DNA of 64,000 nt from a virus, in IMG/VR virus record IMGVR_UViG_3300008954_000002, positions 32,001-96,000 of that record. The stretch is one strand, 5' to 3'. Made by a program: the position numbers and the translations under genes. Shown here piece by piece: positions 29,613-32,064 of the stretch. Positions within the stretch are counted from its first letter, which is position 1. Each line of letters starts with the position of its first letter. The notes under the pieces were generated by a model that had not been told where the DNA came from, ran no database searches, and saw only the letters and a program-made list of their open reading frames with translations.

Positions 29613-30269
29613 ATGGGAATAAAGAAAATAACAGGCATTCCTGAAATAGACACTATAGCTAACGCCTTATCTAAGAAGTTTGGTGGCAAGGAAGTGCTTA
29701 CTCTTGGCCCAAGAATTAAAGAGGCCAACCCAATCCCTACAGGCTCTCTATCTCTAGACTGCCAACTAGGTATAGGCGGAATACCAGACGATAGAGTAAT
29801 AGAGCTGTTCGGCCCATCCTCAGCCGGGAAAACCTCCTTAGCCCTACAGTTTATGCGTCAGTACGTAGACACTAGAGGATATGATCGCCCCCCTGCCTTT
29901 ATTGATCTAGAAAGAACTACTGGACTAGATCTTATACAGGGCATGGGTATAGACCCTGATAGAATTCTATTCTGCTATCCAGATACAGCTGAAGAAGCAC
30001 TACAAATAGCTGCTGACCTAGGCCGTAGTGGTCAAGTAGGCATGATTATATTCGATTCAGTAGATGCGGCTCAGTCTGAGAAAGAGACTAAGAGACAAAT
30101 GGATGAGCTTGGTGTTGGCGATCTACCGAGAGTAATGTCAAAAGCACTAAGAACTATATCCAAGATAGCTACAGACAATAAAGTTGCTTATATCTTCATA
30201 AATCAAATCAGAATGAAGATCGGTTGTGTTGCTCCAGATACTAACATAACCTGGCGACAAGTTGACTAA
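29613..30269 (+). CDS. recA: RecA N-terminal part plus 14-aa split-intein N-fragment
   Basis: [40 protein letters not shown], then [14 protein letters not shown]-stop (IntN 30225-30266). Confidence 0.92.
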   Translation: [218 protein letters not shown]

Positions 30270-30296
30270 GTTGATTTATAGTACTATCCTATATAT

Positions 30297-31166
30297 ATGA
30301 AAAATATATGCAGAGTTTGCTCAACCCGAATAGAGCAATCTAAAAAATACTGTTCAAGAAGCTGTTATCATACAAGTCGCAAAGGCATACCTAGATCAGA
30401 GTCTTTTAAAGAAAAAATAAAGCTTGCTCTTATCGGCAAACCACTTTCTCAAGAGAGAAAAGATAAAATAGGCTTAGCTAATTTAAAAAAAGAAGATTTG
30501 TATATAGAAGAACTTAAGTACCTTTGGTCCATAAGATATATTCAAGACTATTATGCAGTAAAAAGCCACATGAACTTTCCCCATTCTTTAAGAGTCTACA
30601 ATAGACTAAGGAAGAAATATGCAAGCTATCTTATAGAGTGCAAGCCCATCTCCCATCTCCCTGTTACCCTTCAAAAAATGAAAACAGAAAGATGGGAACA
30701 ACTACTTCTTGATCTTAAAACAATGAGAACAAGAGCAGTTTTGGCTAAATGGAGAATAGGCGAAAAAACCATTCGGAGAATTTTAGAAGCCTATTCACTT
30801 CAATGGATCTCAAGCTCTAGACGCTATGGTCAAGAAACCTCAATAGAAAAAACAGTGAGGATATGGCTTCAAAAGCAGGAAGTAGAATTTACACAAGAGT
30901 ACTCTCTTGGCTCTTACTTTTATGATTTTAGAATAAGAAATTTACTTATTGAAGTTCATGGGGACTACTGGCACTGTAATCCTCAGATCTATAACGAGCC
31001 GATATCAGCTACTCAAAAACGAAACCTCATAAACGATAGCCTTAAATTTTCATTTGCCTCTAAAGAGAATTACGAAGTTTACTATATTTGGGAATATGAT
31101 TTAAAAAGAAATACTCAAGCTGAGTTAGATAAACTCAAGGACAAAATAAATGAACTCAACAATTAG
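30297..31166 (+). CDS. Free-standing homing endonuclease (Zn finger, NUMOD3-like repeats, Vsr/DUF559-type nuclease)
   Basis: CRVC...YCSRSC; KG.PRSE..K.KI and GKPLSQE.K.KI; ETSIE...YDF...IEVHGDYWH...D..K......IWE. Confidence 0.85.
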   Translation: MKNICRVCSTRIEQSKKYCSRSCYHTSRKGIPRSESFKEKIKLALIGKPLSQERKDKIGLANLKKEDLYIEELKYLWSIRYIQDYYAVKSHMNFPHSLRVYNRLRKKYASYLIECKPISHLPVTLQKMKTERWEQLLLDLKTMRTRAVLAKWRIGEKTIRRILEAYSLQWISSSRRYGQETSIEKTVRIWLQKQEVEFTQEYSLGSYFYDFRIRNLLIEVHGDYWHCNPQIYNEPISATQKRNLINDSLKFSFASKENYEVYYIWEYDLKRNTQAELDKLKDKINELNN

Positions 31167-32064
31167 CGAGCTTTTCTTAGCGCTAGGGCACCCACAAGAA
31201 AACCTTGTAGAGGACTCTCCAGTAGATGTCAAAGATAAAAACTTTGAGATAGAGAGCTTCGATTTTAGCACAAACCAAAACACTTGGAAGAAAATCTTAA
31301 CAATAGTTAAGAAACCAAAAACAAAAGCCTATATTGTATCCGCAGAAAGTAGGGCCTTTACTTGTTCACCAAATCATAGAATAGCAATATCTCTAGATAA
31401 AGACCTAACAGGTCTACATTTTGTTGAAGCATCTGAATTAGTTTCATTTAAGAAACCCTTTTATTGTAAAACTCCTAAAGGTTTAGTACAAGCATCTGTA
31501 GTTCAGACAGGCAAAGAAACCAATATTCTAGATATAGAAGTAGAAGATACTCATTCTTACTACTCTAACGGAATACTTTCTCATAATACTCTTTATGGCA
31601 ATCCAGAGGCTACATCGGGAGGAAATGCCCTACCCTACTATAGCTCTGTACGCCTTAGAGTAACTTCTAAAGCATCTCCTACACAGAAAGATGCCTTGAG
31701 TATGAAAGTAAGAGTAGTAAAGAATAAAATGGCCCCTGCTTTATCAAAGCAAGCAGAATTTACTTTCATATGTGCACAGGGCACAGATATATACGATGAT
31801 ACATTTGAATTTGCTAAGTCTATTGGCTTAATAAGATCTGCAGGCTCTGCAGTAAAAATTACAATGCCGGGTAAAGAAGAAGAGACATTATGTACTGGAG
31901 GAAAGCTTGGCGCAAGACAGCACTTTATTGAAAATACAGAATACTTTGAACAAATTAGACAGGCCTGCTATAGTATTTCAGGGCTTACCCCGTCAGACTC
32001 CACTGGATCCGAACTTGATACAAATAGTTCTACTTCAGAAGAGGATGTCGTCATTAATCAGTGA
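31150..32064 (+). CDS. recA: Split-intein C-fragment (146 aa) plus RecA C-terminal part
   Basis: CSPNH (block B); ILDIEVEDTHSYYSNGILSHN (to 31587), then TLYGNPEATSGGNALPYYSSVRL...VVKNKMAP. Confidence 0.92.
   Translation: MNSTISELFLALGHPQENLVEDSPVDVKDKNFEIESFDFSTNQNTWKKILTIVKKPKTKAYIVSAESRAFTCSPNHRIAISLDKDLTGLHFVEASELVSFKKPFYCKTPKGLVQASVVQTGKETNILDIEVEDTHSYYSNGILSHNTLYGNPEATSGGNALPYYSSVRLRVTSKASPTQKDALSMKVRVVKNKMAPALSKQAEFTFICAQGTDIYDDTFEFAKSIGLIRSAGSAVKITMPGKEEETLCTGGKLGARQHFIENTEYFEQIRQACYSISGLTPSDSTGSELDTNSSTSEEDVVINQ

Follow-up and report, generated by a model that had tools for sequence, protein, structure and literature searches.

A 64,000-nucleotide stretch of viral DNA, called the window here, carries a recA gene that is broken into separate coding pieces. 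The window comprises bases 32001-96000 of the 161,098-bp virus record IMGVR_UViG_3300008954_000002, and coordinates are given as window positions. The locus (29613-32064) consists of three open reading frames (ORFs), all on one strand. The first encodes the N-terminal part of RecA followed by 14 residues of an intein, the second encodes a free-standing endonuclease, and the third encodes the remaining 146 residues of the intein followed by the C-terminal part of RecA. Sequence comparison and structure prediction together suggest, with a probability of roughly 0.8, that this is a fractured recA gene containing a class-1 intein that is split at an atypical position, the S1 site, and an endonuclease gene that was inserted at the break. 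The source record has direct terminal repeats and is rated complete (161 kb). The complete genome contains one RecA match, which is the one at this locus, and the endonuclease gene of the recA gap is also present in a single copy. If the splicing reading is true, the phage depends on trans-splicing for its only recombinase.

Anatomy of the split recA gene and its intein

An initial annotation of this DNA had placed a 14-residue N-terminal intein fragment (IntN) at the end of the RecA N-part, a TAA stop at 30267-30269, and a 146-residue C-terminal intein fragment (IntC) that ends with SHN before a Thr. The ORFs and junctions bear this out to the base (Table 1). The protein of ORF 1 matches positions 5-197 of the Pfam RecA family (E=8e-46). 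The protein of ORF 3 matches RecA positions 194-260 together with the C-terminal end of Intein_splicing; after 146 intein residues ending with ILDIEVEDTHSYYSNGILSHN, it reads TLYGNPEATSGGNAL... as RecA. The insertion site is in the RecA L2 loop, KIG/.../TLYGNPE (slashes mark splice junctions), four codons 5' of the insertion site of the M. leprae-type RecA intein.

The 14-residue IntN is a textbook block A (C-V-x-P-D-T-x-I), and Cys1, directly after the N-extein, is the N-terminal nucleophile expected of class 1. At its C-terminus, IntC has Asp128 in block F and His145-Asn146 in block G, and Thr follows as the +1 residue. This block F/G end, ILDIEVEDTHSYYSNGILSHN/T, matches Pfam Intein_splicing positions 125-155, and its columns are invariant in the family of related inteins. 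Where is the intein broken? In alignments with the solved mini-inteins Spl DnaX and gp41-1, IntC begins to match only at their residues 23-27. Therefore, IntC is without the first beta-hairpin, which the 14-mer supplies. Contiguous relatives of the intein bridge the break. In these relatives block A leads directly into an (S/T)(M/I)E.L(F) motif (for example, CVTPDTMLEVYEENELTAMMSMENL), and the (S/T)(M/I)E.L motif is the start of IntC in the window (MNSTISELF). Thus, the break lies in the loop that follows beta2.

Evidence for an exact join of the exteins comes from an intein-less relative. A syntenic IMG/VR contig (L001) carries an uninterrupted RecA of 366 residues, whose gene has the same neighbors as in the window: a Holliday-resolvase-like gene, a 106-aa ORF, recA, a 143-aa ORF, and the first dnaE piece. 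The N-extein is 73% identical to residues 1-203 of this RecA and the C-extein is 66% identical to residues 204-345. Because the exteins are collinear with these two segments, with zero residues dropped or repeated at the junction, the join is exact. In other words, the intein is a precise in-frame insertion whose removal gives a collinear RecA, and the earlier claim that joining IG to TLYGNP restores the L2 loop holds. The sole notable change at the junction is in the +1 residue, which is Val in the intein-less L001 and Thr in the window; this change provides the intein nucleophile. The Holliday-resolvase-like gene just 5' of recA (L001:2120-2635; Table 1 for the window) encodes an Endonuc_Holl-type protein related to the archaeal Holliday-junction-resolvase family (Pfam E=1e-33). 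In L001, a dCMP-deaminase-like gene stands between it and recA, and the window is without that gene.

Can the two fragments assemble? The initial annotation had proposed structure prediction as a check of HINT complementation. RecA-N residues 183-218 and IntC-RecA-C residues 1-172 were modeled as a complex, each with its family alignment. The interaction prediction score from aligned errors (ipSAE) was 0.77, compared with 0.09 for the best of three controls; among benchmark complexes, 58 of 80 solved ones attained the mark applied to this score, as did 2 of 110 mismatched pairs. Three runs had at least 78% of their contacts in common, with a predicted local distance difference test (pLDDT) of at least 55 for the partner. 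In the confident interface, RecA-N residues 202-218 (KIG and the whole IntN) are predicted to contact IntC residues 1-6, 30-35, and 70-77 (block B), with further contacts at 124-128, 137-141, 144, and 146. The predicted interface resembles what a completed HINT active site should be. However, the favorable score may reflect a likeness to solved inteins and is not proof of binding or splicing, because many HINT/intein structures have already been solved.

How would such a locus work? In the proposed model, a class-1 mini-intein would occupy the L2 DNA-binding loop of RecA, after Gly204 and before the residue that is Thr in the window but Val in relatives with no intein. A Vsr-like endonuclease gene would have inserted in the intein coding sequence just past the first beta-hairpin (the S1 site), leaving three genes. 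The 14-mer would dock on IntC as strands beta1-beta2 and complete the HINT fold, and Cys1, Ser73/His76, Asp128, His145-Asn146, and Thr+1 would carry out protein trans-splicing. The product would be a 362-aa RecA whose L2 reads KIG-TLYGNPEATSGGNAL. The endonuclease would cut intein-less recA in or next to the L2 codons at co-infection, and repair would copy the cassette in. The gene anatomy, the extein join, the family membership of the parts, their recurrence, and the constraint on their sequences are shown by the data; binding, splicing, and homing of the window system are the steps that we infer.

A different possibility is that the intein halves only hold the RecA fragments together non-covalently, with no peptide bond being formed. 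The complex model speaks for docking and is silent on chemistry, and block B has Ser in place of Thr. There is also a precedent: the fragmented NrdA of phage Aeh1, which is split by a mobile endonuclease gene, is reported to assemble non-covalently (PMC3045599). However, the residues that the four splicing steps require, namely Cys1, the S..H pair, the block F Asp, the terminal HN, and Thr+1, are all retained across loci whose exteins are only ~30% identical. Furthermore, a 160-residue HINT domain left in the L2 loop would probably block RecA filament function. Purely non-covalent assembly is therefore unlikely compared with trans-splicing.

The translation signals bear on how the three genes are read. 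An identical AAGGA Shine-Dalgarno motif stands ahead of recA-N and ahead of the IntC gene, and the 27-nt spacer contains no Shine-Dalgarno ahead of the endonuclease start. Readthrough from recA-N into the endonuclease ORF, which shares its frame, was rejected because two stops (TAA and TAG) intervene. A scan of 29300-32400 for sigma-70-like promoters and terminators gave counts that were not above those of shuffles; two weak sigma-70-like matches just 5' of the endonuclease start are at chance level and constitute no promoter evidence.

Could the endonuclease gene be part of a self-splicing group I intron, or be bypassed by recoding, so that a contiguous mini-intein is made and splices in cis? 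Vsr-like endonuclease genes do occur within group I introns of recA (PMC2677866, PMC3239194). However, an Rfam scan of 28000-34000 with permissive filters found no intron or other family at E<=1. An intron core would hardly fit, since there are only 27 noncoding nucleotides ahead of the endonuclease ORF, whose 3' end overlaps the next ORF by 17 nt. The ATG of IntC is conserved and comes with a Shine-Dalgarno of its own, and two in-frame stops follow IntN. An intron or a recoding event is thus a most improbable explanation of the locus.

Table 1. Coordinates of the recA locus and of other genes of the window discussed in the text.
Feature	Position	Strand	Details
Shine-Dalgarno AAGGA of recA-N	29602-29606	+	
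recA-N ORF (ORF 1)	29613-30269	+	218 aa
recA N-extein	29613-30224	+	204 codons, Walker A GPSSAGKT to NQIRMKIG; last residue G204 (30222-30224)
IntN and stop	30225-30269	+	14 codons 30225-30266 (block A, Cys1), TAA 30267-30269
Spacer	30270-30296	+	27 nt, second in-frame stop TAG inside
Free-standing homing endonuclease gene (putative)	30297-31166	+	289 aa
Shine-Dalgarno AAGGA of IntC gene	31137-31141	+	within 3' end of endonuclease ORF, 8 nt before ATG 31150
IntC-recA-C ORF (ORF 3)	31150-32064	+	304 aa; 17-nt overlap with endonuclease ORF
IntC	31150-31587	+	146 codons; start MNSTISELF, block B S73-P-N-H76, block F ILDIEVEDTH, block G ILSHN146
recA C-extein	31588-32064	+	T+1 LYGNPEATSGGNAL..., 158 codons and stop
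Class II ribonucleotide reductase gene	23151-27332		1393 aa
Holliday-resolvase-like gene	28308-28853		Endonuc_Holl
dnaE piece 1	32506-33819		
dnaE piece 2	34549-36162		
dnaE piece 3	39521-40714		

The endonuclease in the recA gap

The initial annotation had recognized a Vsr-type endonuclease in the gap between the recA pieces. Searched alone, the protein gave a sub-threshold treble-clef hint in Pfam with nothing above threshold, and a single-sequence search against solved structures found no match. A three-sequence profile search retrieved 54 homologues, ~30 of which were full-length at roughly 290 aa. Some of the homologues are labeled very-short-patch-repair endonuclease by their sources, and the domains found in the more distant homologues are NUMOD3, DUF559, Vsr, or MTES_1575. 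When a 27-sequence profile was searched against solved structures, I-Bth0305I (3r3p, E=2e-7) was the best match and E. coli Vsr (1cw0, E=8e-7) the next. Four residues (D210, E219, H226, and D247) are invariant in the 27 sequences and align to the catalytic positions of Vsr/EDxHD enzymes. Their counterparts in the nuclease core are Vsr D51, H69, and D97, together with a family-specific Glu at Vsr F62.

The AlphaFold2 model of the endonuclease (pLDDT 90) shows an N-terminal four-Cys element (CxxC...CxxxC), a helical region that is predicted to be DNA-binding, and a C-terminal alpha/beta nuclease. The top Foldseek match of the model is again 3r3p, with a template modeling score of 0.76 by target and a root-mean-square deviation of 2.8 Å. 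By profile and predicted fold, the protein is a member of the Vsr-like EDxHD/I-Bth0305I family, in agreement with the earlier assignment.

The prototype of the EDxHD family, I-Bth0305I, comes from a group I intron in the recA gene of a Bacillus phage and cuts the L2 codons FGDP (PMC3239194). Therefore, endonucleases of the EDxHD family would target the same conserved recA stretch, whether they are borne by an intron or by an intein; in other words, the L2 codons of recA appear to be a hotspot for Vsr-like homing endonucleases. Like the window endonuclease, I-Bth0305I (PMC3239194, 3R3P) has an N-terminal DNA-binding region followed by a C-terminal Vsr-like nuclease, and its target is recA L2. 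In contrast to this intron-encoded enzyme, the window endonuclease is free-standing in a split intein, is ~22% identical to it, and has the additional N-terminal four-Cys element.

Sister loci and a family of S1-split inteins

The organization of the window locus is not confined to one genome. Sister loci were found by looking up the contigs of homologues, and six further phage contigs from independent assemblies have an identical three-gene layout and an identical site, IG/C...SHN/T. Homologues of the endonuclease occupy the recA gap in all six. Because the layout recurs in six independent assemblies, the split is no assembly or sequencing slip. The neighborhoods of these loci differ, some containing gp32, dUTPase, 5'-3' exonuclease, and DnaB and another containing ThyX. 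The exteins are ~30% identical to those of the window, whereas the catalytic blocks of the intein are invariant: C1, V2, P4, and T6 (the CV.P(D/E)T core), the S..H of block B, and the ILDIEV...SHNT end are the same in all seven loci. The ATG of the IntC gene is conserved in the split family. IntN is 13, 13, 14 (window), 15, 17, 17, and 17 aa long.

Evidence of constraint comes from three of the sister loci (L015, L021, and L022). Their IntN shows no amino-acid change over 13 codons at a proportion of synonymous differences (pS) of ~0.6. In IntC and the endonuclease, the proportion of nonsynonymous differences (pN) is 0.26-0.34 and pS is 0.59-0.81. Because pN is well below pS, IntN, IntC, and the endonuclease are under purifying selection in the family. 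The ratio of nonsynonymous to synonymous substitution rates (dN/dS) is unusable for the window's own intein, whose synonymous sites are saturated. Only sister loci are informative, and L015-L019 are nearly identical.

These data bear on the possibility that recA is a decaying pseudogene, killed when the endonuclease gene inserted into an intein-containing gene. Homing endonuclease insertions can inactivate genes, and the phage has other repair genes, including the Holliday-junction-resolvase-like gene, so that loss of recA might be tolerated. However, none of the three ORFs is disrupted, and the IntC gene is equipped with a separate Shine-Dalgarno and an ATG. Many divergent phages have kept the split layout, and pN is well below pS in their IntN, IntC, and exteins; among the best-matching relatives in sequence databases IntC still mostly starts the protein (see below). 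Decay is very unlikely in view of this persistence.

How large is the family? With an IntC profile, 877 of 1.84 billion cluster representatives were matched at E<=1e-3, of which 192 reached E<=1e-10, and layouts were counted in the best 150 of the 877. IntC is at the start of the protein, the S1-split form, in 112 of these 150 representatives. The rest comprise 25 that are contiguous, 5 in which IntC is internal without block A (some of these 5 resemble endonuclease-IntC fusions), and 8 without the terminal HN motif. Nearly all of the 150 are in the RecA L2 loop, at neighboring points before T(L/M)YG(N/D)P, SYGNP, SPETT, TTPGG, or TGG. In 16 of them, a second intein follows 6-9 residues after the first. 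The window locus is therefore a typical representative of the many lopsided S1-split RecA inteins that make up a large family in metagenomes, and the suggestion of the initial annotation that this copy stands out is not borne out.

Some members of the family go further in their fragmentation. One representative (P0119) occurs on two contigs (L027:966-1463 and L028:1024-1521) as a complete internal gene, downstream of an ORF of 304 aa, and ends in an 11-aa second IntN. Together with P0069, P0077, P0080, and P0098, it represents three-piece recA genes. The middle proteins of these genes, 165-170 aa long, consist of the IntC of one S1-split intein, just 6-9 extein residues (e.g., SYGNPE), and an IntN of 11-15 aa that belongs to a second such intein. 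On another contig (L029), recA-N and the middle piece are separated by an ORF of just 62 aa, the endonuclease apparently having been lost. Two further representatives (P0082 and P0083) are proteins of ~600-620 aa in which IntC begins at about residue 280-297 and is not preceded by a block A. Their length fits an endonuclease that may be fused in frame to IntC-RecA-C.

Several points weigh against the splicing and homing reading of the window locus. First, block B is S73-P-N-H76; its Ser and His are invariant across the family, but Ser stands where the canonical T-x-x-H has Thr. Second, the 14-bp TATGGCAATCCAGA, which is the counterpart of the core target of I-Bth0305I, is intact downstream of the intein. 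It fits only four of the six specified positions of the I-Bth0305I consensus, against which it was scored, and it may not be the target of the window endonuclease itself. Third, no published trans-splicing was found for any member of this split RecA intein family. Fourth, the closest relatives of the window intein are at most 38-39% identical in IntC; because it has no close relative, selection could be measured on sister loci only.

It is tempting, if speculative, to view the recA locus as a sample of a large and little-described radiation of S1-split inteins on the RecA/UvsX L2 loop, with more than 100 clusters at 50% identity and at least five insertion points. Such a radiation might include IntN fragments as short as 11 aa, as well as recA genes in three pieces whose middle gene has just 6-9 extein residues between two inteins. 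If this is true, and many members are active and mutually orthogonal, the 'rare' atypical split inteins would become a large toolbox of short-peptide ligases. It would also mean that endonuclease invasion at the S1 loop, and not at the canonical site, is the favored way to split this intein lineage. The wider S1-split family is more interesting than the single window locus.

Known split inteins and other inteins of the window

Fractured phage genes in which a Vsr-like or GIY-YIG endonuclease lies between the halves of a split intein were already known, as the initial annotation had stated, from Dassa et al. 2009 (PMC2677866). Their hosts include gp41, IMPDH, DnaE, NrdA, NrdJ, ligase, and terminase. 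The window shares with these fractured genes a DNA-metabolism gene in two ORFs, a free-standing endonuclease between them, tight overlaps, and intein-less alleles in relatives (PMC2677866). However, a split recA was not found among the hosts in the text of that paper, where UvsX appears only as a neighboring gene. The text also contains neither 'atypical' nor 'split site', whereas the window intein is broken after residue 14, at S1.

Natural atypically split inteins are treated in the literature as few, with about five in use, and are described with an IntN of 15-37 aa; that of VidaL is 16 aa and that of PolB16 OarG is 15 aa (PMC13014065, PMC10189870). The latter has been called 'the shortest characterised so far' (PMC10189870), and five atypically split inteins were included in the comparison of a 2025 paper (PMC11923092). 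VidaL (PDB 6VGV/6VGW) and PolB16 resemble the window intein in being naturally split right after beta2, which makes IntN very short and IntC long, and VidaL is likewise cysteine-dependent (PMC13014065). The window intein differs from both in its 14-aa IntN and in its host, the RecA L2 loop. In sequence, the relationship is only distant: VidaL matches the IntC profile at E=0.007, more weakly than the mini-inteins Spl DnaX and gp41-1 do, and PolB16 is absent from the matches. Full-text literature searches combining UvsX or RecA with split or atypical inteins turned up nothing on a split recA intein. Presumably, the Lake Vida data set that yielded VidaL also had 'UvsX' inteins, which may belong to the family of the window intein.

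Split inteins whose short N-fragments are accessible to peptide synthesis are useful in semisynthesis and labeling. The initial annotation had ranked the window IntN among the shortest natural N-fragments. The ranking stands to the extent that it is one residue shorter than that of PolB16 and two shorter than that of VidaL; within its own family, relatives with 13 and 11 aa are shorter still. Because 14 aa is only marginally below 15 and 16, its value as a tool is incremental, and the window intein is one added Cys1/Thr+1 candidate. More useful would be the family of divergent versions, some with a shorter IntN, whose members could be screened for speed, for tolerance of different exteins, and for orthogonality.

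The M. leprae-type RecA intein (RecA-b, VMFG/.../SPETT) is also in the L2 loop, and some members of the S1-split family are found at that site (SPETTTGG). The window intein is unlike it in being four codons upstream and in being split. A contiguous RecA mini-intein at the M. leprae-type site, VMFG/CLHANT...VHN/SPETT, is present on a 356-kb jumbo-phage contig (L007:2969-4549).

A search of deposited phages with blastn found no relatives of the window at the DNA level. Including recA, dnaE, and the ribonucleotide reductase gene, the window contains at least four intein elements. DnaE (DNA polymerase III alpha) is encoded in three genes. The first piece contains the PHP domain and the start of the NTPase domain and ends just after FERFLNKGR, with no intein. 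The second piece ends in FADY/CLAGDTQV..., a canonical IntN of ~97 aa, and the piece with IntC and HHH_6 is ~3.4 kb downstream, past tail-fibre-like genes. The B12-dependent (class II) ribonucleotide reductase has intein matches in two separate regions, LAGLIDADG/Hom_end and Hint_2 at residues ~288-588 and Intein_splicing at 786-1074.

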